A stretch of 64,000 bases of DNA, taken from Eggerthellaceae bacterium. Its GTDB lineage: Bacteria > Actinomycetota > Coriobacteriia > Coriobacteriales > Eggerthellaceae. Each line of letters opens with the position of its first letter. Positions within the stretch are counted from its first letter, which is position 1. The stretch is taken from the NCBI GenBank assembly GCA_015062605.1, contig SUUI01000006.1:15205-79204 (forward strand). The letters are read 5' to 3'. This document shows, one piece after another, positions 39,366 through 50,587 of this stretch. The notes under the pieces are model-generated. The model saw only the letters and a program-made list of their open reading frames with translations. It was not told where the DNA came from and did no database searches. Made by a program: the position numbers and the translations under genes.

Positions 39366-40085
39366 TTAATTTCGTGGTTCATCAGGTGCTAAATCGTATT
39401 TATGCTTGATGCGCTCAAGTTTTTTGCGCCATGGTGCATAGAGAACGAGTAAGAAGATGACCGTCGAGATGCCATTCGCCAAATCCAGAGGCAGACCAGC
39501 ACCGTATGCAAGCAATGCGGACTGCCACGTGATGGGATGAACATAGCCGATGATGTACCAGGAGTTCAAAAGGAAACCATACTCGAGAATCGGCGCGAGT
39601 AGACCATATCCATACAGAATCGGTTTGCGCTCGAAGGCGCCATGGTCTGCGAGCACGCCTGCAAGATAACCCATCAACCCGAACCCGTACATCTGCCATG
39701 GGGTCCACGGGCCCTGACCTAAGAAGAAGTTGGACAGAAGCATCGCAAGCGCCCCGACCATGAATCCAGAACGCCTACCGAAAATGATACCCGCCATGAT
39801 GGTGATGGCACCGACCGGCTGCACGTTCGGGATGACTGCGAAGACGATGCGCCCCGCAACGGCAAGCGCCGCGAGCACGACCGTGGGCATGATCTGCCGA
39901 AGCTGAGGACGCGATGCTTCAAAGCTCGCGAAGAACACGAGCACACTCAATAAAACCACGACCATCGTGAGCAACGCGGACTGATCCACCTGCATGAACG
40001 CAGCAGAGAGCAAGCTCATCGGAACGATGATGAGCGCTGGTATCTCCAGTTTCTGCCAGATATTTGCCATCGTGCCCTTCGTCAT
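39366..40085 (-). CDS. putative ECF transporter substrate-capture (S) component, specificity unknown (not CbiM-like)
   Basis: A 239-aa, very hydrophobic protein with about 6-7 TM segments. It starts 1 nt after the ECF ATPase stop. The assignment rests on context and topology only. Confidence 0.6.
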   Translation of the reverse strand: MTKGTMANIWQKLEIPALIIVPMSLLSAAFMQVDQSALLTMVVVLLSVLVFFASFEASRPQLRQIMPTVVLAALAVAGRIVFAVIPNVQPVGAITIMAGIIFGRRSGFMVGALAMLLSNFFLGQGPWTPWQMYGFGLMGYLAGVLADHGAFERKPILYGYGLLAPILEYGFLLNSWYIIGYVHPITWQSALLAYGAGLPLDLANGISTVIFLLVLYAPWRKKLERIKHKYDLAPDEPRN

Positions 40086-40086
40086 G

Positions 40087-41574
40087 TCAGATGCCAGACT
40101 CCATTTCTGGACGAGTCCATGTCACAAAGAACCGATCGATCACGGGACGATAGAACAGATTCTCTGCGAAGAACAGAGAAGTCGGCTCCGTACTCACGAT
40201 CTGCCCGTCGAAGATCATCGATGTGGTATCCGCGACACGCGATGCGAATGCCAGGTCGTGCGTGACAAGGAGAACCGTCGTTCCATGTGCTGCAGCACGG
40301 CAAATCGCATCGGCAACGATGTACTTGGAACGGACATCTAAACCTTTGGTAGGCTCATCGACCATAAGCAACGCTGGTTTCGTGAGCATGATCTTCGCGA
40401 ATGCCAAGAGCTGTTGCTGACCGCCTGACAAGTCGTAAGGGTGCTGCCCAAGCACATGGTCGATATGGAGGTTCTTCGCCAGAACCTGAATGTCCTCATC
40501 GGTATAGCCGCAACCTTTTTGCCATTCGGCAAGCTCTTCAGCTGCCGTATCGCACACGAACAGCGACTTGGGGTCTTGTGGCAAAAGCGCCTGATTATCT
40601 TTAAGCAGATTCTTCAAAGAGCCGCGGTCTATCTTCATGATGCCTGCCATCGTGGAAAGAAGCGTTGATTTGCCGCTTCCGTTGCCACCAACAAGCGTAT
40701 GAACCGAGCCCTTCTTCAATGTGAAATCCAACCCGCGCAAAACATAGGGCAATTCGCGCTTGTAACGCACATACACGTCTTTGAATGTGACGGCAACATC
40801 CTCTCCCGAAAACGCGGGGGCGCATACGCCCTCCGCTCGAAAATCCACCGAAGATGCGCGTTCGTGAACCTCACGTCGATACGCTTCCACATCCCTATCT
40901 TGAACTTTTCCGTCCTTCATGACAGCGAAGACTGTAGCGTAATCGACCACGGTCTCCGGCTCATGCGTGACCATGAGAATAGTCAAGCCCAACTCGCGGT
41001 TGATACGGAAGAGCGCATGCAGGAAGTTCTTGGAAGCCACAGGGTCGAGTTGCCCTGTGGGCTCATCTAAAAGCAGGATGCGCGGGCGGAGCGCGAGAAT
41101 ACTCGCAAGGGTCAGAAGCTGCTTCTGACCACCCGAGAGCTCGTTCGTGGCATTATCCAGCCATGGCTCGATGCCAAAGAAGTGCGCTACCTCAGCCACA
41201 CGACGGTGCATCTCGTCTTGCGGGATCGCAAGGTTCTCTAACCCGAATGCCATCTCATGCCACACAGTGTCGCATACGATCTGATTATCAGGGCTTTGCG
41301 ACACATACCCGATAGTCTGTGCCGATTCGGAAGCAGAGAGCTCTTCGATCGGTCTTCCGAACACGCGGATGGACCCCTCGCGCACACCCGTAGGAGCAAG
41401 CTCGGGCTTCATATTGCGAAGAAGCGTGGTCTTGCCGCAGCCCGTGGCGCCCACGAGCAACGTGAGCGAACCTTCCTTCACGGTCCAATCTACGGGGCCT
41501 AGGATGAGCCTATCGCCATATGCGAACGTGAATCCAGAAACCTCGATGGCGGGGACATTCCTTACAGGCTCCAT
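40087..41574 (-). CDS. ECF transporter ATPase, fused EcfA-EcfA' (two ABC domains)
   Basis: A 495-aa ORF with two Walker A motifs (GATGCGKTT, GGNGSGKST), two signatures (LSGGQKQ, LSGGQQQ) and two Walker B motifs (LLLDEPT, LMVDEPT). Confidence 0.9.
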   Translation of the reverse strand: MEPVRNVPAIEVSGFTFAYGDRLILGPVDWTVKEGSLTLLVGATGCGKTTLLRNMKPELAPTGVREGSIRVFGRPIEELSASESAQTIGYVSQSPDNQIVCDTVWHEMAFGLENLAIPQDEMHRRVAEVAHFFGIEPWLDNATNELSGGQKQLLTLASILALRPRILLLDEPTGQLDPVASKNFLHALFRINRELGLTILMVTHEPETVVDYATVFAVMKDGKVQDRDVEAYRREVHERASSVDFRAEGVCAPAFSGEDVAVTFKDVYVRYKRELPYVLRGLDFTLKKGSVHTLVGGNGSGKSTLLSTMAGIMKIDRGSLKNLLKDNQALLPQDPKSLFVCDTAAEELAEWQKGCGYTDEDIQVLAKNLHIDHVLGQHPYDLSGGQQQLLAFAKIMLTKPALLMVDEPTKGLDVRSKYIVADAICRAAAHGTTVLLVTHDLAFASRVADTTSMIFDGQIVSTEPTSLFFAENLFYRPVIDRFFVTWTRPEMESGI

Positions 41575-42488
41575 ACGATGCGCTCCTTAATCTCCAAAAT
41601 GAAGGGAATAATCAAGAACAGAAGGTAAGGCAGGTAACCCCACCACACAATAAGCTCGCTGAGCTTTGGATAGTAGGTGAACTGCGTGCATGCCGCAATG
41701 GCGCAAACCGTGCTTATCACGATGAGAACGCCCATGATAGCCGCCATAACGCCATCGCGAGCGCGAAAGTCGCTTCTTTGATAGGTGGTGCGCTTCGGGG
41801 CAGCACCCCAACCGCGAGCCCTCATGGCCTCGGAAGTGTCAAGTGAGTCTTCCATTCCCCACCCCATGAGCACCGTGAGATCGCGCAAATACGTGCGGAC
41901 AGAATCCGCCCGCTTCGCGAAGAAACCCTTACTTGCGATAGCATCAGAAGTACCTTGCGAACCGAAGCCTACCTGATTATCAAGGTTGGCAGAGGTGCAG
42001 AATTCCTGCGTTGAACGTATCGACTTGGAACGTCGCATGAATTGCGGGACCAAGCGCAGAATCATCGTCACCATGAGTCCTATCGTGGGCATAACCCTAC
42101 CCGTAAGCTGCATCATCTTATCGCTCGTGAGTATATGCGAGAGGTTAGAGAACCACTGCATGATAGATACGAGCATGATTCCCATGCATAGGCCGTATAC
42201 AAGGCTTTCCAAATAGAAAGCGCTGTATCCGAACATGAACAGGACCGTCGATCCGCTTTGCGAGAATATCGGGTTCAGAAGCGTGATGATCAAAAGCAAT
42301 GGCAGCTGCCATGTAAGCGTTTTGAGCGCGGGACGCCATCCACGCAAGAAGATGTTATAGGCGATCGCCACGATGAAATTCATGGCCAGAAAGACCGGCT
42401 GGAACGCGGCCATTGTGAATACAAGCGCCGCAACCAGATAGATTGCGGCGATCGCAGGATGATATGTGTCAAAGGCTGTTCTGGTCAT
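41562..42488 (-). CDS. ECF transporter transmembrane (T) component, CbiQ/EcfT family
   Basis: A 308-aa polytopic ORF with the characteristic coupling-helix Ala-Arg-Gly motif (SEAMRARGWG). It overlaps the ATPase start by 13 nt. Confidence 0.85.
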   Translation of the reverse strand: MTRTAFDTYHPAIAAIYLVAALVFTMAAFQPVFLAMNFIVAIAYNIFLRGWRPALKTLTWQLPLLLIITLLNPIFSQSGSTVLFMFGYSAFYLESLVYGLCMGIMLVSIMQWFSNLSHILTSDKMMQLTGRVMPTIGLMVTMILRLVPQFMRRSKSIRSTQEFCTSANLDNQVGFGSQGTSDAIASKGFFAKRADSVRTYLRDLTVLMGWGMEDSLDTSEAMRARGWGAAPKRTTYQRSDFRARDGVMAAIMGVLIVISTVCAIAACTQFTYYPKLSELIVWWGYLPYLLFLIIPFILEIKERIVWSL

Positions 42489-42510
42489 CTAGGGCAAGAC
42501 ATGCCTTCCT

Positions 42511-43128
42511 TTACATGTCATCGTATTTCGTGACATAGTACCAACGAACCCTATCGCCATCGCTGAGCACATACGATCCGCAAGACATCATCGGTGTGTA
42601 ATCATTGACTGAATACATCCACCCGCTCGTTTTGCCGTAATCGTATTCCGAAAGACCGTTGATGGAGCGTACATATTCGCTGCTGCCACCGAAAGGCAGT
42701 CCCGTCGCCACTAAGGCATCGAAGACCGTTGCTCCCTCGTCAAGCTCGACCGTCATGTCCGCGAAGTATCCGCGATCGGCATTGGTCGCATCAACGTAAA
42801 TGTAAATCGAGATTGTTGCAGCTTCAGGCTCGGGTTCAGGCTCTGGCACGGGCTCCGGTTCGGAGCTCGATTCGCCAGATGGCGAAGATGCGGACGAGGA
42901 GCTCGACTCTCCCGACGATGGCTTCGCGGCCTCGTCGGAAGCAGCCTTCCCTCCCTCGCTTTCTGTTGCAGATTCGCCGGATTTCTTTTCAACTTGCTCA
43001 GTCTGTGCGGTTGGTTTGTCCTTGGTTGTCTTGAACAGATCACAACCGCACATACATGTGGAGCACAGGAGCACCAATAGACATGCGATAAATGTCCGCG
43101 TCAGTCTTTTCGGTGCTCCTGTTATCAT
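42511..43128 (-). CDS. DUF4430 (transcobalamin/intrinsic-factor C-terminal-domain-like) lipoprotein
   Basis: A 205-aa ORF with an AAGGAG RBS and a lipobox (STCMCGC|D). A Ser/Glu/Pro-rich linker is followed by ISIYIYVDATNADRGYFADMTVELDEGATVFDALVATGLPFGGSSEYVRSINGLSEYDYGKTSGWMYSVNDYTPMMSCGSYVLSDGDRVRWYY, the DUF4430 pattern as I recall it. Confidence 0.75.
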   Translation of the reverse strand: MITGAPKRLTRTFIACLLVLLCSTCMCGCDLFKTTKDKPTAQTEQVEKKSGESATESEGGKAASDEAAKPSSGESSSSSASSPSGESSSEPEPVPEPEPEPEAATISIYIYVDATNADRGYFADMTVELDEGATVFDALVATGLPFGGSSEYVRSINGLSEYDYGKTSGWMYSVNDYTPMMSCGSYVLSDGDRVRWYYVTKYDDM

Positions 43129-43169
43129 AAATATGCTCCTTTACACTTCTTGTTTAGGCGAATTATACC

Positions 43170-46100
43170 TTATGCGGTTTTTTCGCCAAGCTGGCCAAGT
43201 GAGAGCCACAAATCATTGGTAGCACGATACCAGCCAGGAATCTTGTCTGACGAAGAGCCAGTATTATTCCAAACTGTGATGTCAAGAACCGTACCATTAT
43301 TCAGCATAGCCTCAACTTCTGCCTTAGGCAAAGTGATTTCGAAGTGCCACATCGTGACACCTTCGTTCGTACCAGCTGAGGTGCCCTCAATAACTTGAGT
43401 TCCTGCAGGCAGATATGAATCCGCGACATAGTTCTCGCCATCAGGAATGAAATCGTGAGACTTGGCAAGGGCAAGGCGCGAATACTTGCCTACAGAAGAA
43501 GTCGAACCATCTTCTGTAAAGATAATCGTGGCGGTATCGCCCTCAACCTTCAAGAAGCGGCTATCGGCCACCATGTGGTTGAACATTGCGCCTGGACCAG
43601 ACTTAAGCTCTGGAAGCGAATACGTTCCATCTTCGAGCACGACGGGCTCCTTGATGGTGAACTCGGCTGTCACAATGCCAGTGTAGCCCGCAGACTCCAC
43701 GCCGGTAATCGTGTACACGACCTTTCCGACAGACGTGCCATCAGAGGTCGATGCAACCGACCCATTGCTGACCGTGTAATCCTGATCGGCAACGAGGGTC
43801 TTGTCACCAATTGCGACCGTGATGGCCGGCTGATGCGGCTGGCCATCATAGAGCACGCTCTCGGGCTCAAGCGTCACCGTAGCCGTGCTAAGGTTGATAA
43901 GCTGTGGCTGGTCACCCTCAATCGCAGCCTTGGTGTGCATGACGTAGAGCTGCTGGACGGACTCGATCTCGCCGAGGCCGGCGATCTGGCAGCTGACGTT
44001 CGCGGGAGCGAAGTTGCCCTCAGCCGTGAACTGGCTGTACCAGGACTCCTCGTCCTCGGGGTCGGCCATGTCATTGTTGGCATGGTCACCTGCGACGACC
44101 ATCAGCGGACGAAGGATGACCTTCGTATAGCCAGCGGCCTTCACCTTGGCGATGACCGCAGAGCACTCGGTGCTTGCGGGCTCGCCCTCGACGGTGCCGA
44201 TGAAGACGTTATCGTAATGGAGCATGTTCATCATGGTCTGCATCTGCTCATAAGTGATGCTCGCATTATGAGCGGTGCCATGGCCCATGAACACGATGGC
44301 GGTGCCACTGGCAGCGGCATCGTTTACGCTATCGAAGCCGGCAGCTTTGCTTGCAGTGCCAGCCGCCGCCATGGCGACGGACTCCTTGTCGCCGTTGACG
44401 ACGGAAGCATCGGCACCGACCTCGCCGAGCAGCGGCTCGGCGACCTTGACGGACTCGAACTTAGACTCGTAGGGCGCGAGTGCCGCGACGAGCTCGTCGT
44501 ACTCGGCGCCATGCATCAGGTGCGTGGGCTGAACAACGAGATTCTTCACACCGTTGGCGACCGCGCGGTCGAGGGCCTGCTGCATGTTGTCGATCTTGAC
44601 GCCGTCACGCGCGTAGATGTGGTTGATGATGATCTGAGCGGTGAACGCGCGGCGCACGGACCAATCCGGGTACGCGGCCTGGATTGCCTTCTCGACGCCA
44701 CCGATGTCCGCAGCACGGCTATTGTTGAACGACGTGCCGAAGCTCACGACCAGAATCTCGTTCTCGCCGATGCCGTCCTGGTTCAAGGGATTATCGGCAG
44801 AAGCATCACCCGTGTCGCGACCGAAGTAGTCGTACTCCTCCACGAGGAGCTTCTCCTCGTCGCTCAGGGCATCCCAAGCGGCCTTGGCGGCCTCGCAGTC
44901 GGCCCAGGTCGTGTCGGTGAAGTACTGGACCTGGATCTTGGCGATCAGGTCGTCGACGCTATCGCCGGAGACCGGCTCGGTCCAGCTGGCGAGGTAAAGC
45001 GTGCCAGCAGCCTCGTTGAGGGTGATCTCGCGCGGATACCACTCCTCGTTCTTCACGGACCAGAACGACATGACGAACGGCTCGCCGTTGGCGAGGTTGA
45101 CGACGGACGTCGGATCGCCGTAGGTGGCGACCCACTTCACCGGGATGGTGAAGGACCGGTCGTCGGCGATGGCGATGGTCTCGGTCGCCGCGGCGGCCTC
45201 ATCGGGCGTGCCGACGAATGCCTTCGAGTACGACGCGGATCCCATGGTCATGACCAGGTCGGCCTTGTAGTTGTTGGAGTTCGGGCCGCCGACCATCTCG
45301 AGCGTCGCGGAGGAGACGCTCATCATGAGGCCGGTCTCCTTGCTCACCTCGAGGACCTTGGAAGCCTCGAAGTCGCCCACCACGAGCGTCTTAGCGTCGA
45401 GATCGAGTGCGAACTGGCGCGGATAGAAGGAGCGCTCGATTGCATTCTGGCCCTGCAGATACTTCTGATAGTAGGTATCGGAGATCGACACGACGGGAAC
45501 GTCCTTGCCCAGCTCATCGGCGGCGATGTTTGTCTGGAACTCCCATTTTCCATCGGAGTTCTGCACGCCCTTGATGAGCTTGTCGGAGCCGGTATCAGCG
45601 GCAATGCCGGAGGCGATGTCCTCCTTAGCGGCGACTGCCTGCTCGTAAGTGCCCTTGTACAGCCAATGATAGCTCGAACCGGACAGCGTGAAGGTCAGCG
45701 TCGCGGAGCCGTCAGCGTTAGCGACAGCGGAAGCGGTCGCAGCCTTGAACATGCCAGTATTGTTGGTGATGACAAGCTCGATCGGCTCAGCCGGAGTCAG
45801 CTTATCTTCAGATGGAATCGCCAAGTAATACTGGTCTGCCGTGGTCGCGGAGGGGTCCTTCACCTTATTCGGAACAACCGGCCACGCATAACCGCAGTAG
45901 CTCTTCGGAAGGGTAATCGAGAAGGTCTCGCTATCGAAATCAAAAGCGAAGTAAGAGTCGTCCTTCCATGTCGACTGAACACTGATATCAGCATTCAGGA
46001 AGAAGCCTTTGTAAATCGTCTTGTTCTTGGGAACGTAGTTGATAACGACATTATCGCCTTCGATGGCGATCGTGGTGCCCTCTTGCGGACCGAACATGCC

Positions 46101-49100
46101 GAAATCGCCACCTGCAGCATTAATGAATTTGACGTTATCGCCGTCATAGGGGAACTCGGTGGCAACGCCTGCGCCAACCTTCCACAGCTGGTTCGGACCG
46201 TCGTTTAAGGTCCAGACACCCACGTTGGCGCCAGCCTGCGGCGCAGAGCCGGCAGCATCAAGCACGACCGCAGGGTTCGCTACGGACTGGATCATGAAGA
46301 AACCAGGGGTTTTCTCGCTCGGGACGAGCACCCATTGCTGGTTCAGAGCTTCATGGTATTGCCACGTGGAGACATTGCCGCCAGCCTGGGGCTCCTCGCC
46401 CTCTGCATCGAGCACCAAGTCGGGATTGGCGAAGTTACGCAGGACGTAGTAGCCGCTATCCTGCAGCTCGATCGTGAACATTTGGTTCGCTCCGCCATTG
46501 CTCGTCCAGATGGAGACATTGGCACCGCTCACAGGCTGGGCGCCGGCGACGTCAAGCACAAAATCATCGCTGAACGCACTCACCAAGTGATTCGGGGTCG
46601 TAGAACCCTTGGGCACAGGAGCCGGATAAATCGTGAACTCGCCAAGTTCCACAGAACCGGAGCAGGTGATACCTTCGATAGTCACCATGTAGGTGCCGTG
46701 CCCAGAAGGAGCCTCGGAGGACTCGCCGAACTTGAGAGCGTAATCGGTGCCCGCAGAAAGTTCCTTACCGTTCAGTGTCACGGTAACATCAGGCGAAAGC
46801 GGACCTCCAGTGACGTTCTTCGCCATGCCGGTAGCCTTCACATCGGCGTAAGCAAGATTATCAGCGGAAACGATCTTCCAAGCTTGGTTCGGACCATCGT
46901 TTGCAGTCCAAACGCCCACGTTCGCACCAATCTCGGGCGCAGAGCCTGCGGCATCCAGCACAACCTCGGGGTTCGCCACGGATTGAATCATGAAGTAACC
47001 GGGGTTCTTCTCACTCGGAACGAACACCCATTCTTGGTTCAGCGCCGCATGATAGGCCCACGTGGAGATATTGCCGCCAGCCTGGGGCACCTCGCCCTCG
47101 GCATCCAACACGAGATCTGTGTTCGCGACGTTGCGAAGCACATAGTTACCGTTATCGGAAGCCTCGACGGTGAACAACTGGTTAGAGCCGCCGTTGGAAG
47201 TCCAAATAGATACGTTTGCGCCACTTACGGGCTCAGCTCCCGCGACATCGAGGATGAAATTGTCATCGAAAGCCGACACGATGCGGTAGGCCTTACCGGC
47301 CTCGATGCCCTCAGGGGCATTGGAAAGATCGAAGGTGCCGATCTTCTTCTCGCCGAAGTACTTGCCGCCATCAACCGCCTTCGCAGTCACGACATACTTG
47401 CCAGCTACGGTCGGGACATCAGTGGTCACATTCGTCCCGTCATCATAGTACAGCTTGTAATCGGTACCCTCAACAAGAGCGTCAGACCCCATGGTGAGGG
47501 TGACCTCAGGAGCAACAGCCTTGCCGTTGATGATGTTTTTGGTCATACCAGTTGCCTCAGCGGTGGCGCAACGGAGATCATTCTCCTCAACGAACCACCA
47601 CAGTTGGTTCGGCTGACCGTTGCCGGTCCACAGACCGACATTGGCGCCAGCTTGGGGCTCGGAACCCGCAGCATCAAGATACAGCGCATCGGAGATGATG
47701 TTGACCATATAGCCCATATCATCACCTGCGCCAGCACCGAGGAGGGTAATGTTCCATTCCTGGTTGGTTCCGCCATTAGCAGTCCAGGTGGAAACGTTCG
47801 AGCCTGCTTGGGGCACAGCGCCCGCAGCATCGAGCACGAGCTCGGGATTGGCAACGTTACGGATGACATAGCCGCCACGATCGCCGATATCGAAGGTGAA
47901 GAGCTGATTGTCGCCACCGTTATTCGTCCAAATGGAGACGTTGGAACCAGCCTCGGGCATCGCCGCAGCGACATCGAGCACAAATGCGTCATCGAAGGCG
48001 GAGACGATATGGTACTTCGTGCCGTCGATCTTCACGGGCAATGCCTTCGGGTAGACATCGGTCATGTCGTAGAGAGATGTCTCGCGTTCCACGAAGCGGT
48101 TATATGCGACTAGAGCATAGAAACCCTGCTGCGTAGCAGCCAGGTTGTAGTTCGTATCAACCCAACCGAAACCGCCACCAGCGCACGCATAGGTGCACAG
48201 CGCATCAAGCACGGACTTACCGTTCTTGATGAAGCGGGAATCGGTATCCGGATCGATGCCGAGCTCGGTCAAGGCAACGATGACCTGGGAAGCGGACATG
48301 GAGTTCTCAGAACCCCAGCTCGCAAAACCACCGGTATCGAGCTGCATATCGGAAAGCTTGGCGACTGCCTTGTCGACAGCGGCTTTCACATTAGCATCCG
48401 TATCAACGTACTTGGCCAACGCCTGGATAGCCATGGCCGTCAGGTCGGGATCGGCATTGGTTCCCATGTAATCCCAACCGCCATCGGCGAGTTGAGCGCT
48501 CAAGATGTTCTCGATAAGCTTCTCGCGCGTAGTCTGGGTTGCACCAGCGTCAGCTTCGGGAATCACATAATCATGGGAGTCAAACGCCAGAAGCGCATAG
48601 ATGGCGGCATTCACGCCCTGCTTGTCGATGGCGTCATAGTCAGCCAAACCCTTGGTCAAATCATAACCGCCGAGATCGCTCGCATCGTAGTGCGCGGCGG
48701 TCAGTGCGAGGATGGTGCGAGAGTAATCCGTGCTAGCAGCGCTCGGACCGAGCTTCCCGTCATTGTCTTGCAGGGTTTTCGCGATGTTCGCAAAATACGG
48801 GCCAAAGCCCATATGGGACCAGCCGCGAGCCATGCCCATGACGAACCAATCGGTACCGGAACCCATGCCGTCATCAAGGATATCCCACACGAGATCACGC
48901 GTACGCATGTAGATGTCGATGACATCATCCGGCATGACGCGCTCATATTCGAAGGTGATGACATAGTACAAAGTGGAATTCCACGATGTGTCATATGGGC
49001 TTTGAATCTGAATGCAATCGAACTCACCATCAGCATTGAAGTCCGTAGCAACAGTTGCGCTCGACTTGCCAGCATAAACATCTGGATAGTTCTGCGCACC

Positions 49101-50240
49101 ATCAAGATAGGTTTCCCCATCCGCTTTGTAGTTATAGGCTTGGACATCATCGGAGAAATAGAGATCAACAGATTCCGTGCCCTGGGGGATTTCGACCGTA
49201 TATGCGCCAACAGTCGTCGCGGGACCATAAGTCGACCCCGTATAGCCATCAGGTGTGAAGGAGAGAACCGTGCATGCCTGGCCATCCACTACAACAGTGA
49301 AGGAGGCAGTGTAGTTGATCTCGATGGCATAGAGCATGGTCGAAGACCAGTTCTCGTCATAGGGCGTCTGAACCCAGATGTAAGCAGGGAGCTCACCTTT
49401 GCTGTCAGCATTGAAGGATGCAGTAACCTCGCCGATCTGGCCGTTGTTACCGTATCCGTTAATCTTGTCGGCAGCACCGGTGTCGATATACGAGGCCCAC
49501 TCGTCATAACCGTATGCGATTAGCGGAACACCCTTGAAATCGAGCTCCAGCGCCGAGGTGCCATACGGCACGGTCAGAACATAAAGATCGGAGGTGTTCT
49601 CAACCTGAACCCAATTACCGCTTTCATCCTGAACCCATTGAGAATAGGTGTAGCCATCTTCGATCAGGTCGGAGGAAGTGCCAACCGAAGGAACGAACGG
49701 ACCGTCCCATGCGGGAGCTGCAGGAAGTTGGACGATGAAGCAATGGGCGTTCTCGTAATCTTCTGTGCACAGGATGAAGATGTAAGCGTTGCTGAAGTCA
49801 AGAGAATCCGCCGAGCTGTCAAGCTCGATGTTATCATCTTCCTCAAGGAACTCCGTCAAATTAAACTGTGCATCAAGGCGGATAGGCGCCTCGTAGACGC
49901 TATCCCTTTCGGCGCCGGTCATATCCTCAAGTCCCATGAAATAATACGTGTTAGATCTGGGATTGAAGAGCTGGGCGCCTTCGTCCATCAGGTCCGCGAG
50001 ATCAGTGAAAACGATGACATCGGCAGCTTCATCGAGGGCGATGTAATTGATGTCCATCTCCTCCATGAACGTATACGTACCGATGACATCGCAATCCTCG
50101 ATCGCAACGTCCTTTTTAACTGTGTCTGCCTTGGCTGTCGCCGGAGCGAACGCCATGCAGAGCGCGAAAGCCAGGAACAGCGATGATATGAGCGCTATCC
50201 CCTTCTTCGCGAGTTGAGAGCATCTGAATGGTCTATCCAT
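43170..50240 (-). CDS. giant secreted multidomain protein (2356 aa). Domain order: signal peptide; acidic N-domain; 2 x beta-repeat; alpha/alpha-toroid; 3 x (ricin beta-trefoil + Ig-like); 3 x unknown module; CbiK-like chelatase domain; Ig-like; 4th unknown module
   Basis: ORF 43170..50324. The realistic start is the Met at 50240 (MDRPFRCSQLAKKGIALISSLFLAFALCMAFAPATAKA|DT), preceded by GGAAGGGGG. The annotated upstream 28 codons run through the riboswitch terminator. There is no LPXTG or lipobox. Domain evidence is given in the separate entries. Confidence 0.85.
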   Translation of the reverse strand: MDRPFRCSQLAKKGIALISSLFLAFALCMAFAPATAKADTVKKDVAIEDCDVIGTYTFMEEMDINYIALDEAADVIVFTDLADLMDEGAQLFNPRSNTYYFMGLEDMTGAERDSVYEAPIRLDAQFNLTEFLEEDDNIELDSSADSLDFSNAYIFILCTEDYENAHCFIVQLPAAPAWDGPFVPSVGTSSDLIEDGYTYSQWVQDESGNWVQVENTSDLYVLTVPYGTSALELDFKGVPLIAYGYDEWASYIDTGAADKINGYGNNGQIGEVTASFNADSKGELPAYIWVQTPYDENWSSTMLYAIEINYTASFTVVVDGQACTVLSFTPDGYTGSTYGPATTVGAYTVEIPQGTESVDLYFSDDVQAYNYKADGETYLDGAQNYPDVYAGKSSATVATDFNADGEFDCIQIQSPYDTSWNSTLYYVITFEYERVMPDDVIDIYMRTRDLVWDILDDGMGSGTDWFVMGMARGWSHMGFGPYFANIAKTLQDNDGKLGPSAASTDYSRTILALTAAHYDASDLGGYDLTKGLADYDAIDKQGVNAAIYALLAFDSHDYVIPEADAGATQTTREKLIENILSAQLADGGWDYMGTNADPDLTAMAIQALAKYVDTDANVKAAVDKAVAKLSDMQLDTGGFASWGSENSMSASQVIVALTELGIDPDTDSRFIKNGKSVLDALCTYACAGGGFGWVDTNYNLAATQQGFYALVAYNRFVERETSLYDMTDVYPKALPVKIDGTKYHIVSAFDDAFVLDVAAAMPEAGSNVSIWTNNGGDNQLFTFDIGDRGGYVIRNVANPELVLDAAGAVPQAGSNVSTWTANGGTNQEWNITLLGAGAGDDMGYMVNIISDALYLDAAGSEPQAGANVGLWTGNGQPNQLWWFVEENDLRCATAEATGMTKNIINGKAVAPEVTLTMGSDALVEGTDYKLYYDDGTNVTTDVPTVAGKYVVTAKAVDGGKYFGEKKIGTFDLSNAPEGIEAGKAYRIVSAFDDNFILDVAGAEPVSGANVSIWTSNGGSNQLFTVEASDNGNYVLRNVANTDLVLDAEGEVPQAGGNISTWAYHAALNQEWVFVPSEKNPGYFMIQSVANPEVVLDAAGSAPEIGANVGVWTANDGPNQAWKIVSADNLAYADVKATGMAKNVTGGPLSPDVTVTLNGKELSAGTDYALKFGESSEAPSGHGTYMVTIEGITCSGSVELGEFTIYPAPVPKGSTTPNHLVSAFSDDFVLDVAGAQPVSGANVSIWTSNGGANQMFTIELQDSGYYVLRNFANPDLVLDAEGEEPQAGGNVSTWQYHEALNQQWVLVPSEKTPGFFMIQSVANPAVVLDAAGSAPQAGANVGVWTLNDGPNQLWKVGAGVATEFPYDGDNVKFINAAGGDFGMFGPQEGTTIAIEGDNVVINYVPKNKTIYKGFFLNADISVQSTWKDDSYFAFDFDSETFSITLPKSYCGYAWPVVPNKVKDPSATTADQYYLAIPSEDKLTPAEPIELVITNNTGMFKAATASAVANADGSATLTFTLSGSSYHWLYKGTYEQAVAAKEDIASGIAADTGSDKLIKGVQNSDGKWEFQTNIAADELGKDVPVVSISDTYYQKYLQGQNAIERSFYPRQFALDLDAKTLVVGDFEASKVLEVSKETGLMMSVSSATLEMVGGPNSNNYKADLVMTMGSASYSKAFVGTPDEAAAATETIAIADDRSFTIPVKWVATYGDPTSVVNLANGEPFVMSFWSVKNEEWYPREITLNEAAGTLYLASWTEPVSGDSVDDLIAKIQVQYFTDTTWADCEAAKAAWDALSDEEKLLVEEYDYFGRDTGDASADNPLNQDGIGENEILVVSFGTSFNNSRAADIGGVEKAIQAAYPDWSVRRAFTAQIIINHIYARDGVKIDNMQQALDRAVANGVKNLVVQPTHLMHGAEYDELVAALAPYESKFESVKVAEPLLGEVGADASVVNGDKESVAMAAAGTASKAAGFDSVNDAAASGTAIVFMGHGTAHNASITYEQMQTMMNMLHYDNVFIGTVEGEPASTECSAVIAKVKAAGYTKVILRPLMVVAGDHANNDMADPEDEESWYSQFTAEGNFAPANVSCQIAGLGEIESVQQLYVMHTKAAIEGDQPQLINLSTATVTLEPESVLYDGQPHQPAITVAIGDKTLVADQDYTVSNGSVASTSDGTSVGKVVYTITGVESAGYTGIVTAEFTIKEPVVLEDGTYSLPELKSGPGAMFNHMVADSRFLKVEGDTATIIFTEDGSTSSVGKYSRLALAKSHDFIPDGENYVADSYLPAGTQVIEGTSAGTNEGVTMWHFEITLPKAEVEAMLNNGTVLDITVWNNTGSSSDKIPGWYRATNDLWLSLGQLGEKTA
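43925..44765 (-). other. CbiK-type (class II anaerobic) chelatase-fold domain within the secreted giant protein
   Basis: Sequence ILVVSFGTSFNNSRAADIGGVEKAI...VRRAFTAQIII...NLVVQPTHLMHGAEYDEL...AIVFMGHGTAHNA...KVILRPLMVVAGDHANNDMA. Both His-containing boxes that ligate metal in CbiK (QP.H...G.EY and GHGT.H) are retained. Confidence 0.7.
46175..48020 (-). repeat. three tandem cassettes of ricin-type beta-trefoil lectin (about 140 aa) plus an Ig-like domain, period about 710-720 bp
   Basis: Each trefoil has three Q-x-[WF] subrepeats: NQLFTF/NQEWNI/NQLWWF; NQLFTV/NQEWVF/NQAWKI; NQMFTI/NQQWVL/NQLWKV. Approximate trefoil positions are 47585-48020, 46870-47295 and 46175-46595. Trefoils 2 and 3 are very similar along their full length. 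Confidence 0.8.
48090..48900 (-). other. prenyltransferase/terpene-cyclase-like alpha/alpha-toroid domain (transcobalamin alpha-domain-like) within the giant protein
   Basis: Periodic helical-hairpin repeats carry small or aromatic residues: GTDWFVMGMARGW, TDYSRTILALTAA, VNAAIYALLAF, LADGGWDY...DPDLTAMAIQALA, LDTGGFASWG...SMSASQVIVALTELG, CAGGGFGW...NLAATQQGFYALVAY. Confidence 0.6.
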
Positions 50241-50316
50241 ATGTCCCCCTTCCTCTATACGTGCCACGCTTGCCAGAGCCGAGTTGTGCAAGCACCTTAT
50301 TACAGAAGAAGGGCCG

Positions 50317-50353
50317 CAAAACAAAAAACTGCGCGCACATAGAGTGCACGCAG
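50317..50353 (-). terminator. intrinsic terminator forming the expression platform of the riboswitch leader
   Basis: The minus strand reads CTGCGTGCAC-tcta-GTGCGCGCAG (one mismatch) followed by TTTTTTGTTTTG. It lies about 75 nt upstream of the 50240 start codon. Confidence 0.55.
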
Positions 50354-50424
50354 CCCGTATTCGCTACGTAAAAGCCAGGCTGACGCCCAGGTTGGACACA
50401 CGGTGATTCGCCGCAGTTTCCAGC

Positions 50425-50552
50425 ACGTCTCCTAGTGGGCGATCTGGCTTTCGGCGAGGGTGTGTTTTTATGCTACGACGACCGATTCACAGTGGCGGGA
50501 CCGCGTGGGAATCTCACCCACTTCTCCCATCCTAGAAGGTCTTTCTTCTGTA
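50425..50552 (-). promoter_or_regulatory. cobalamin (B12) riboswitch aptamer, compact form
   Basis: The minus strand reads ...CUAGGAUGGGAGAAGUGGGUGAGAUUCCCACGCGGUCCCGCCACUGUGAAUCGG...CGAAAGCCAGAUCGCCCACUAGG. The conserved core elements are recognisable: GGGA(G/A)A, GGUGnnAnUCC, GCGGuCCCGCCACUGU and a B12-box-like AGCCAGAUCGCC. A P1-like closing pair joins CUAGGAUGGG with CCCACUAGG. Downstream, CCUGGCUUU can alternatively pair with the B12-box AAAGCCAG. Confidence 0.75.
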
Positions 50553-50558
50553 CGCTCC

Positions 50559-50587
50559 ATAGTATCGAAAACACCCTTGAATGAAAA
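50559..50587 (-). promoter_or_regulatory. candidate sigma-70-type promoter for the riboswitch operon
   Basis: The minus strand reads TTTTCA-17 nt-TACTAT, which would place the transcription start just upstream of the aptamer. This is sequence pattern only. Confidence 0.3.

Follow-up and report, generated by a model that had tools for sequence, protein, structure and literature searches.

Within the 64,000-nucleotide stretch of DNA that we analyzed (the window), the leader at 50552-50240 on the minus strand is probably a functional RF01482-like Cbl-II riboswitch that would repress an operon for corrinoid capture and import by ending transcription early at an intrinsic terminator. Judged from its sequence, it is a genuine cobalamin riboswitch, belongs to the short class and falls just under the standard database cut-offs. 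As for the direction of control, repression by termination when B12 is plentiful is the best reading, and one that we consider very likely. The element is of an ordinary kind, with some lineage-specific wiring. All of the features described below lie on the minus strand.

The aptamer and its database scores

The cobalamin aptamer spans 110 nt from P1 to P1 (50429..50538), as delimited by the RF01482 alignment, by a lineage covariance model (R1, see below) and by covariation, and its length agrees with the 110-125 nt that an earlier note on this DNA had estimated. P1 pairs CUUCUAG (50538-50532) with CUAGGAG (50435-50429) and P2/3 pairs UGGG (50529-50526) with CCCA (50439-50436). The P4 hairpin occupies 50521-50505 and P5/L5 (GGUCCCGCC) 50502-50494, the base of P6 is formed by CUG (50492-50490) with CAG (50446-50444), and the B12 box, AAAGCCAG, lies at 50451-50444. 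All sequences quoted in the earlier note were found on the minus strand, including the core GGGAGAAGUGGGUGAGAUUCCCACGCGGUCCCGCCACUGUGAAUCGG, and AAAGCCAGAUCGCCCACUAGG at 50451-50431. In Cbl-II riboswitches, the P2 loop-stem-loop between P1 and P3 is absent and P6 bears a small stem-loop (PMC7367189). The window presents both of these traits, as only a GA bulge (2 nt) separates CUUCUAG of P1 from UGGG, with no P2 arm, and as P6 is a short hairpin with no P7-P11 extension. Given also the better match to RF01482 than to RF00174, the assignment to the shorter class, without the peripheral extension, stands as first proposed.

What the window shares with RF01482 (the AdoCbl riboswitch of clan CL00101) and with Cbl-II, IIb-like riboswitches (PMC7367189) is the match over the whole model, the lack of the P2 loop-stem-loop, the short P6 hairpin replacing P7-P11, and the conserved L4, L5 UCCCG, GCCACUG and B12 box. 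It differs from RF01482 in an A-rich insert of 27 nt that enlarges the apical loop of the short P6 hairpin (50455..50481, aligned by cmscan against 5 nt in the model), in a 2-nt deletion in the 3' strand of P2/3 and in its L13 loop, which reads CGAAUCA instead of the CGAGG-like consensus of the model. There are thus 43 nt between the P6 base pairs in the window, as compared to 20-28 nt in most relatives, and the P6 arm is a 3-4 bp hairpin with no further helices predicted; the insert contains CGUAGC, a hexamer identical to one in the 5' arm of hairpin H (see below). The Bacillus subtilis yvrC riboswitch, a Cbl-I/II hybrid (PMC7367189), likewise combines a short P6 extension with a transcription-terminator platform, but keeps the P2 arm that the window lacks. 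Downstream of P1, the canonical RF01482 3' hairpin, P13a (50391..50424), occupies the kissing-loop hairpin position within both the RF01482 and R1 matches; its loop is CGAAUCA (50410-50404), both of its helices covary, and it gave P<5e-5 in the cognate test.

At gathering score, Rfam returned no match across the whole window, and the cut-offs of all three cobalamin clan models were missed: RF01482 scored 44.5 bits against a gathering score of 50 (local E 7.7e-7, per-genome E 4.1e-7), RF01689 scored 32.9 against 36.5, and RF00174, with which the earlier note had proposed an Infernal check, scored 28.6 against 31.5. That check thus fell short on RF00174 itself, and a covariance-model score under threshold, which the note had named as grounds for refutation, was obtained with all three models, while the lineage model supplied the support. 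R1 was built from 15 Eggerthellaceae leaders, most of them above the RF01482 cut-off, with the window and its sister sequence left out, and the window aligned to the whole of it (positions 1-145 of 145) at 93.8 bits (E~8e-20). We do not take the Rfam shortfall as refuting the assignment, because it stems mainly from the 27-nt loop insert, because the relatives form a continuum of 41-78 bits on RF01482, and because the independent lineage model is decisive. In the cmscan alignment, the RF01482 match covers the whole model (positions 1-149), with the 3' kissing-loop hairpin included.

Comparison among the relatives points in the same direction. In alignment A2, 91.1% of the helix cells are paired, as compared to 37-44% in slid controls, and 21 of the 28 aptamer pairs present double-sided changes, a level seen in none of 500 shuffles. 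The junction helices P1 and P3-P6 have covariation support, although the base pairs of P5 and P6 are nearly invariant and are, therefore, uninformative for covariation. The leader folds with z = -3.45 relative to shuffles, and the core motifs of the window, namely the L4 T-loop GGUGAnAnUCC, L5 UCCCG (the L5 consensus; PMC10327014), GCCACUG and the B12 box AGYCAG, were aligned by cmscan with high posterior probability and are also seen in the lineage alignment. The lineage score, the covariation and the B12-uptake operon downstream together substantiate the cobalamin riboswitch that had been recognized by the earlier note.

The scores under all three gathering thresholds and the insert in L6 could, nonetheless, be read as signs of decay, as could the fit between L13a (CGAAUCA) and L5 (UCCCG), which offers only two Watson-Crick pairs (CG). 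Such an aptamer would have lost ligand binding and the terminator would act as a constitutive attenuator. We consider this very improbable. The core motifs are all intact (GCCACUG, L4 GGUGAGAUUCC, the B12 box and L5 UCCCG), every helix pairs in the window, the J6/3 variant AUCGCC is also found in above-threshold relatives, and a strong constitutive terminator would silence an intact 11-kb uptake operon. While CGAGU of L13a can pair with ACCG of L5 around a bulged A in most relatives, two other leaders (L018 and L096) are as weak as the window in this respect.

Terminator, hairpin H and the anti-aptamer helix

The intrinsic terminator, T (50317..50356), was found by a scan match with 13 pairs and consists of a 5' arm, GGGCUGCGUGCAC (50356-50344), the loop UCUAU (50343-50339), a 3' arm, GUGCGCGCAG (50338-50329), and the U-tract UUUUUUGUUUUG (50328-50317). 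With a stem of 12-13 bp, an energy of -20.9 kcal/mol and a U-tract of 6U+4U, it sits 77 nt upstream of the start codon. The GC-rich hairpin and U-tract described in the earlier note are thus confirmed, and an equivalent hairpin exists in relatives (cognate test, P<5e-5). A weak match to the Rfam trpB motif (E 1.8) reflects the terminator only.

Hairpin H (50348..50369) is formed by ACGUAGC (50369-50363) and GCUGCGU (50354-50348) around the loop GAAUACGG, in which CGGG lies at 50358-50355. As the 3' arm of H is the base of the 5' arm of T, with 7 nt common to both, the two hairpins are mutually exclusive. All 18 leaders that were compared form H, with energies between -5 and -15 kcal/mol, and H is present in every pre-terminator MFE and gave P=0.026 in the cognate test; its motif, GTRGCGAATACGGGCYGCG, recurs behind both short and long cobalamin aptamers across Coriobacteriia. 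When the motif was searched for across the order with one mismatch, the pattern was as noisy as its reversed control. The one-substitution loop variants GCGAATGCGGGC and GCGCATACGGGC of Collinsella-like genomes are unrelated, being found inside protein-coding genes with no aptamer upstream, and neither loop length nor sequence fits an ANTAR-type dual hexaloop, a guanidine-II ACGR loop or another protein-binding antiterminator motif.

The energy balance between H and T should be considered when their roles are discussed. In the window, H reaches -11.7 kcal/mol as compared to -20.9 for T, and it overlaps only the basal 7 nt of the latter. T is thermodynamically favored in every modeled state, and regulation would thus rest on kinetics or on tertiary contacts that lie outside the models. 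In the context of the whole leader, T prevails over H by only 2-4 kcal/mol, such that modest extra stabilization of H could matter.

Between P13a and H lies Px (50375..50390), a small hairpin (CUGGGC-GUCA-GCCUGG) that was detected as a terminator-like scan match and has a variable hairpin as its counterpart in most relatives. Either arm of Px can pair instead with the 3' half of the aptamer, UGGGCG (50389-50384) with CGCCCA (50441-50436) on the side of the P2/3 3' strand, and CUGGCUUU (50378-50371) with the B12 box. The anti-aptamer helix that results (3' strands at 50371..50389; MFE, duplex energy and cognate test) joins the B12 box and the P2/3 3' strand to both Px arms through 9+6 bp, i.e., about 15 bp. 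The competing B12-box pairing that the earlier note had reported is, therefore, real and larger than described (P~0.008). Of the nine bases of CCUGGCUUU (50379-50371), the eight of CUGGCUUU are perfectly complementary to AAAGCCAG, while the ninth, a mismatch already flagged in the earlier note, faces an A of the box and would pair only with G.

Once transcribed, this helix constitutes the ligand-free MFE, at -60.1 as compared to -49.9 kcal/mol when the aptamer is forced. The energy of the B12-box/Px duplex is -24.1 (z -3.0, P 0.0075 against dinucleotide shuffles), and the cognate partner in the window, at -22.2, outdoes the non-cognate ones, at -12.6, of which none of 13 was as good. The family mean is -11.2 for cognate and -11.0 for non-cognate partners. 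Indeed, the helix is kept in only about 3 of 14 genera and is absent from most genera with H/T, and thus cannot be a general relay; as judged by this distribution of sequences, it is a lineage-specific feature and not one of the family. In the sister genome, substitutions in the Px loop lengthen it to 8+6 bp. The helix ends exactly where H starts (0 nt gap) and by itself makes no contact with the terminator.

From these elements, the following course of events can be proposed. With corrinoid bound, the 3' half of the aptamer would be locked by P1, P6, J6/3 and the L5 kissing loop with P13a, Px would fold locally, the isolated H would be displaced by the 3' arm of the terminator, and transcription would stop at 50328-50317. 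With no ligand, the emerging Px and linker would invade the aptamer 3' half, and H, stacked on the anti-aptamer helix, would hold the base of the terminator until polymerase has passed, such that control would be kinetic. [quoted passage not shown] The repressing, transcriptional metE riboswitch of Priestia megaterium (PMC10327014) presents the same order of aptamer, P13/L13, further platform and intrinsic terminator, and the same expected logic, with the ligand and the kissing loop favoring the terminator. There, however, the antiterminator consists of the P13 3' strand and the terminator 5' strand, a pairing (P13a-3' x T-5', or a' x T5) with no signal in our test (cognate -8.7, non-cognate -8.9, P 0.70; window -8.8), and the terminator competitor in the window is instead the separate, conserved H, with the extra Px lying between P13a and H. 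No covarying antiterminator linking the aptamer or P13a to T was found among the six pairings tested: with positive controls passed, there was also no cognate preference for J1/13+P13a-5' x T-5', P1-3'+J1/13 x T-5', a x b', a' x b or J1/13 x H loop, and it should be noted that a pairing of two invariant partners would escape the cognate test.

The lack of a covarying antiterminator would suit an exchange of kissing loops, which would still turn the operon off. Here, H would be another P13-like hairpin, docking onto free L5 (UCCCG) through its loop (..ACGGG) and so serving as antiterminator; upon corrinoid binding, L5 would be taken by the earlier-transcribed P13a together with the ligand, H would be left undocked and the terminator would win. 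The sequence of the H loop does not change from genus to genus, unlike that of the H stem and of the terminator; the CGG(G) of the loop is complementary to (C)CCG of L5 in 18 of 18 leaders, with four consecutive G-C pairs in the window; P13a and H nearly repeat one another at the apex (GGCGA[GA]U(U)AC); and the H/T module follows short as well as long aptamers, which have the core with L5 in common. Moreover, CCG x CGG has been reported as the functional kissing bases, and four consecutive kissing pairs lock P13 almost independently of ligand (PMC10327014). However, as both partners are invariant, they provide no covariation evidence, complementarity of CCG with CGG comes cheap, and the ligand-free fold of the window disrupts the four-way junction from which L5 is presented. 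In addition, the P13 loop CGGGAUG of two classic leaders (L068 and L076) at least equals H in complementarity to L5, which weakens the idea that P13 needs the ligand while H does not. We thus hold such an exchange to be a speculative option.

The 5' flank, the CU-rich strand and the start codon

P13a, hairpin H and the triad of 5' flank, CU-rich strand and Shine-Dalgarno (SD) sequence, on which any discussion of the mechanism depends, are absent from the earlier note. A strict sigma-70 scan found no full promoter. By direct reading, a -10-like element, GATACTAT (50559..50566), is present, and relatives carry TATACT/TATAAT at an equal distance from P1; from this element, we infer a promoter with transcription starting at ~50554-50551. 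The purine-rich 5' flank R0, ACAGAAGAAAGAC (50539..50551), is the 5' strand of a long-range helix, P0, and its partner is the CU-rich strand Y2, GGCCCUUCUUCUGU (50302..50315), which is transcribed on read-through only and can pair alternatively with R0 or with the SD region. R0xY2 covaries across genera; P0 reached -11.0 kcal/mol in cognate and -8.5 in non-cognate combinations, none of 20,000 permutations being as low, and in the window the helix amounts to -15.6 kcal/mol (P~0.009 against shuffles).

The translation initiation region (TIR; 50238..50259), defined by direct reading and duplex prediction, comprises the Y2-pairing strand UAUAGAGGAAGGG (50259-50247), the SD core GGAAGGGGGA (50253-50244) and the start codon ATG (50240-50238). 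The start of the longest ORF, a TTG at 50324-50322, lies inside the terminator U-tract, while the ATG at 50240 follows GGAAGGGGGA and begins the coding sequence of a signal peptide, such that the earlier preference for 50240 over 50324 is supported. Upon read-through, the transcript 5' end would capture Y2 first, in helix P0, which would keep Y2 off the SD and allow the operon to be translated.

One could also consider that R0, Y2 and SD form a decisive anti-anti-SD/anti-SD/SD switch, with control being mainly translational and the terminator an auxiliary attenuator. Indeed, Y2xSD comprises 13 bp at -20.5 kcal/mol (shuffle P 0.012) and is the MFE of the read-through leader, the covariation of R0 with Y2 extends across genera, the cognate preference of Y2xTIR (P=0.03) is accompanied by strong pairing in the window, L027, L087, L013 and L020, and the terminator-less relatives L013, L020 and L023 carry the 5'-end/Y2/SD device only. 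Still, R0 lies outside the aptamer and nothing was found that ties its availability to the ligand, the window has a strong canonical terminator, and pairing of Y2 with the TIR is lacking in 5-6 of 14 leaders, all of which make a mainly translational switch unlikely. The translational riboswitches E. coli btuB and env8HyCbl, which act by SD sequestration (PMC10327014), share with the window a CU-rich strand able to sequester the SD. In both, the hairpin that sequesters the SD has a direct link with P13 and the kissing loop, whereas the anti-SD strand of the window follows the terminator and is contested by the very 5' end of the transcript, outside the aptamer.

The operon and the sign of regulation

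The regulated operon (39366..50240), as defined by ORFs and Pfam, begins with a secreted protein of 2,356 aa that carries CbiK and ricin-lectin domains (50240-43170; Pfam and signal peptide). This is followed by a DUF4430 protein (43128-42511; Pfam), a protein of 308 aa (42488-41562) that matched nothing in Pfam and is, by its position, possibly the ECF T component, a double ABC ATPase of ECF type (41574-40087; Pfam) and an ECF S component (40085-39366; Pfam). Judged from these genes, the operon most likely serves the capture and import of B12-like cofactors in this gut Eggerthellaceae bacterium. All homologous H/T leaders precede genes for corrinoid capture or uptake, ECF-T components included, with an ECF-T gene coming first in L065 and L066, and no H/T leader was found ahead of metE, nrd or cob. 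As every H/T leader precedes such genes, the downstream genes could not fix the sign of regulation.

The opposite sign should thus be weighed. If H, and not P13a, were locked by the corrinoid-dependent kissing loop, H would be an antiterminator and B12 would turn the operon on, as in the activating cobT riboswitch of Alkalihalobacillus halodurans (PMC10327014). The two share a CGG-loop hairpin that overlaps the terminator 5' arm and excludes it, and it is this exclusivity that defines the wiring of cobT, the one activating corrinoid riboswitch to have been validated (PMC10327014). In addition, H in the window is the best complement of L5 (4 bp as compared to 2 bp for L13a), every thermodynamic model yields the terminator by default, and P0 adjoins P1 and could stack on closed P1. 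In cobT, however, the hairpin is the only P13, while the window also has the upstream canonical P13a, with covarying stems, a conserved loop and standard position, which would compete for L5. The cobT gene is for cofactor remodeling, whereas the window has importers, as do L065 and L066 with their leading ECF-T genes, and induction of a transporter by its own substrate would be unusual. Repression was the rule in 38 of 38 functional cobalamin riboswitches (PMC9600662), and the ligand-free anti-aptamer helix adjoins H, which fits H as a structure of the apo state. Activation by corrinoid is, therefore, decidedly unlikely, and repression by termination remains our reading.

Our literature search on the cobalamin riboswitch platforms of Eggerthellaceae found nothing. 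It is conceivable, if doubtful, that Coriobacteriia share an undescribed platform module on short and long aptamers, in which H and P13 compete for L5, by kissing-loop exchange or, in the extreme case, by ligand-locked antitermination, whereby corrinoid would activate these B12-uptake operons, and in which the 5'-end/anti-SD/SD triad gates translation upon read-through. How ligand binding is relayed to the terminator has been called an open question beyond one or two model switches (PMC10327014); H and the triad offer concrete, mutable targets for studying this relay in kissing-loop riboswitches. The analysis also fixes the start of the giant CbiK/ricin surface protein at 50240. Finally, standard annotation with Rfam overlooks the B12 riboswitch of this 11-kb corrinoid-scavenging operon, which lies just under three cut-offs, and likewise misses several relatives (41-50 bits). 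With the window and these relatives all sub-threshold, the B12 regulons of gut Eggerthellaceae are probably under-called.

Identity and class of the riboswitch

At gathering thresholds, the Rfam search of the whole 64-kb window yielded zero matches. At permissive thresholds, the leader matched the full RF01482 (AdoCbl) model, positions 1-149, at 50552-50388 with 44.5 bits (E 7.7e-7; gathering cut-off 50), and it scored 28.6 bits with RF00174 (cut-off 31.5) and 32.9 bits with RF01689 (cut-off 36.5). The score is thus below threshold with all three models, an outcome that the earlier note had listed as counting against its call of a cobalamin riboswitch. We do not take it as a refutation, on four grounds. 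The shortfall with RF01482 comes mainly from 27 nt inserted in the loop that caps the short P6 hairpin, together with a deletion of 2 nt, and with this model the scores of homologous Eggerthellaceae leaders run continuously from 41.5 to 78.1 bits. A lineage covariance model, built from 15 relatives and excluding both the window and its near-identical sister, recognized the window leader over positions 1-145 of 145 with 93.8 bits (E ~8e-20). Finally, the helices covary: in an alignment of 30 distinct sequences, standard pairs fill 91.1% of the cells, as compared to 37-44% when the partners were slid, 21 of the 28 pairs present changes on both sides, and the observed values were reached by none of 500 shuffles. 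The call therefore stands, and the leader is a genuine cobalamin riboswitch of the known short class, a member overlooked by the standard Rfam cut-offs. The closest relative is a goat-jejunum MAG.

The sequences quoted in the earlier note were all found on the minus strand, to which all leader coordinates refer. P1 (CUUCUAG/CUAGGAG, 50538-50532 / 50435-50429) is separated only by a GA bulge from a second helix (UGGG/CCCA, 50529-50526 / 50439-50436). These are followed by the P4 hairpin (GUGGGUGAGAUUCCCAC, 50521-50505), by P5 with its loop L5 (GGUCCCGCC, 50502-50494) and the invariant GCCACUG, by the P6 base (CUG/CAG, 50492-50490 / 50446-50444) and by the B12 box (AAAGCCAG, 50451-50444). From P1 to P1 the aptamer measures 110 nt, in line with the size estimated before, and P6 carries a hairpin of 3-4 bp with a large loop in place of the P7-P11 extension. 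The proposed short class is thereby upheld, and by the definition in PMC7367189 the architecture is Cbl-II, nearer to the IIb description.

Two further observations concern sequences resembling H, a conserved hairpin of the expression platform. The P6-loop insert, which is window-specific, holds CGUAGC (50476-50471, within UCGUAGCAUAAAAAC), the same hexamer as in the 5' arm of H (ACGUAGCGAAUAC, 50368-50363). In principle the insert could also pair with the terminator 5' arm. This may be coincidence. The linker between P1 and P13a (columns 196-204 of the lineage leader alignment A2; window 50428-50425 and flanks; consensus AAGCGUGU) is strongly conserved in Eggerthellaceae leaders, is not conserved in the Rfam consensus, and is similar to the H 5' arm (RCGURGC).

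The regulated operon and related leaders in the genome

The start at 50240, preferred before over that of the longest ORF, is borne out: the TTG opening the longest ORF (50324) falls within the terminator U-tract, and ATG 50240 has GGAAGGGGGA upstream and a signal peptide encoded from there. The product of the first gene (50240-43170, minus strand) is a secreted protein of 2,356 aa that carries many ricin-type lectin repeats besides a CbiK chelatase domain. Next come genes for a DUF4430 protein, a 308-aa protein, a double ABC ATPase and an ECF S component. The 308-aa protein has no Pfam match and, judging from its position only, is possibly the ECF T component. Together these genes are an operon for corrinoid capture and import. 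The phosphonate cluster upstream is unrelated and has a terminator of its own. Between the end of its gene (50803) and the riboswitch promoter lie two terminator-like hairpins (50772-50740 and 50590-50574, minus strand), the first of which (GGAGGGCGGUGC..GCACCGCCCUUU) accounts for weak Rfam matches to ar35 and suhB.

The same genome holds two further elements slightly over the RF01482 cut-off and one classic RF00174 element of 90 bits (L005, C7:233360-233720, plus strand). The latter ends in CCCGUGGCGAAAGCUUACGGGCUUUUU, and there the GGCGAA...ACGGGC theme reappears, with ACGGGC as the terminator 3' arm and the SD directly after it. An RF01482 element of 51 bits (L002/L031, C16:166300-166890, minus strand) carries a degenerate H-like sequence (UUUACGUGGCGAGCGGAAG), then a CU-rich strand (GGUCCUUCUUCUGU) and a strong terminator. 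With no obvious ORF start in the roughly 150 nt that follow, this leader could be wired differently or resemble an sRNA. A terminator and a secreted protein follow a fifth, weak cobalamin-like element (L009, C1:5888-6007, plus strand; 20.9 bits with RF00174 and 33.7 bits with RF01689, cut-off 36.5), which may be another sub-threshold B12 riboswitch.

Expression platform

Downstream of the aptamer lie P13a (50424-50391), which RF01482 models as the canonical 3' hairpin and whose lower and upper stems covary; Px (50390-50375), a small hairpin followed by a U-rich linker; H (ACGUAGC / GAAUACGG / GCUGCGU, 50369-50348); and the terminator T (GGGCUGCGUGCAC-UCUAU-GUGCGCGCAG with UUUUUUGUUUUG, 50356-50317), which had been noticed by eye and which the terminator scan recovered as a hairpin of 13 pairs. 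The 3' arm of H is the base of the terminator 5' arm. The GTRGCGAATACGGGCYGCG hairpin with terminator recurs in Coriobacteriia, including Eggerthellaceae and Coriobacteriaceae MAGs, behind nine further short, RF01482-like aptamers (L065-L106) and also behind classic long, RF00174-like ones (L068, L069, L076). As the long-aptamer leaders keep their own proper P13 (loop CGGGAUG or AGGAUGA), H is extra to P13 and common to both aptamer classes. This distribution would make H and the terminator a lineage-wide expression-platform module, of which we found no description in the literature searched. H forms in 18 of 18 leaders (-5 to -15 kcal/mol; T, -18 to -35 kcal/mol), and it is present in every minimum-energy fold of transcripts ending before the terminator 3' arm. 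It prefers its own partner over those from other genera (P=0.026), although the search pattern had fixed its inner pairs. In two leaders (L066, L096), the hairpin at the terminator position has no U-tract (GUAAGCG or GCUGCUUUACG follows), and these probably use another read-out.

The competing pairing of the B12 box with CCUGGCUUU (50379-50371) is present and larger than first described: the duplex joins GAAAGCCAG to CUGGCUUUU and CGCCCA to UGGGCG, so that both Px arms can pair with the aptamer 3' half. The duplex (-24.1 kcal/mol) is better than dinucleotide shuffles (z -3.0, P 0.0075), and once the linker is transcribed this anti-aptamer fold is the unconstrained minimum (-60.1 vs -49.9 kcal/mol with the aptamer helices forced). 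Its 3' strand ends where H starts, with zero gap, and the two helices can therefore stack. In the sister genome, Px-loop substitutions lengthen the helix to 8+6 bp. In the window, the cognate pairing (-22.2) exceeds non-cognate ones (-12.6; 0/13 as good), while the family means are alike (-11.2 vs -11.0) and the own partner is clearly better only in the window and L019, and marginally in L021. The pairing is thus lineage-specific rather than general across genera.

A second layer involves R0, the purine-rich 5' transcript end (ACAGAAGAAAGAC, 50551-50539), Y2, a CU-rich strand directly after the terminator (CCCUUCUUCUGUA, 50315-50302), and the SD region pairing with it (UAUAGAGGAAGGG, 50259-50247). 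R0 is complementary to Y2, and equivalent pairings of differing sequence (CAGAAGAA / UUCUUCUG; AACAAGAC / GUCUUGUU; AGAGAC / GUCUCU) are found in 12 of 14 genera. Cognate pairing scores -11.0 kcal/mol vs -8.5 for non-cognate (0/20,000 permutations as low, P<5e-5), and the three segments vary in concert between genera. In the window, Y2xSD (13 bp, -20.5 kcal/mol) is stronger than R0xY2 (-15.6 kcal/mol) and gives the read-through leader its minimum-energy fold; both helices are better than shuffles. Pairing of Y2 with the translation initiation region occurs in about 8 of 15 leaders (P=0.03) and is the sole device in three terminator-less relatives (L013, L020, L023). We interpret the three segments as a triad (anti-anti-SD / anti-SD / SD) that would gate translation of the read-through transcript; the leader analysis found no source for a ligand dependence of R0.

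From ligand to terminator

Six candidate relay pairings were scored with one cognate/non-cognate statistic, a test that is powerless for proposed contacts between two invariant partners. No cognate signal was obtained for P13a-3' x T-5' (the metE-type antiterminator), J1/13+P13a-5' x T-5', P1-3'+J1/13 x T-5', a x b', a' x b or J1/13 x H loop; the same statistic was positive for P13a and T (P<5e-5 each) and for H. In all the states modelled, T is the thermodynamically preferred structure, and it leads H plus the terminator apex by only 2-4 kcal/mol for the whole leader (-84.8 vs -81.3 with the anti-aptamer helix forced; -74.8 vs -72.5 with the aptamer forced). Control must thus be kinetic or act via a tertiary contact. 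The reading we favour for the window is that, in the ligand-free state, the anti-aptamer helix would form with H stacked on it, so that the terminator base would be completed later; once ligand is bound, Px would fold by itself, H would be left isolated and the terminator would win.

H may instead be a second P13-like hairpin that competes for L5, a reading that accounts for its invariant loop better than stacking does. The H loop CGG(G) is complementary to L5 (C)CCG, with four G-C pairs in the window, whereas the canonical L13a loop CGAAUCA has only two pairs to L5. According to PMC10327014, CCG x CGG are the functional kissing bases, and four consecutive kissing pairs lock P13 nearly without ligand. 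Such a contest could result in a kissing-loop exchange, still OFF, or in a corrinoid-activated ON switch of the cobT type. We consider the ON switch unlikely, as the canonical P13a is there and covaries, importer genes lie behind the same H/T module, and 38/38 functional riboswitches in PMC9600662 repressed.

The relay is the weak point of the explanation, and the points of interest beyond it are the conserved H/T module and the triad. Every statement of the earlier note proved right. The riboswitch most likely represses the corrinoid-uptake operon by termination.
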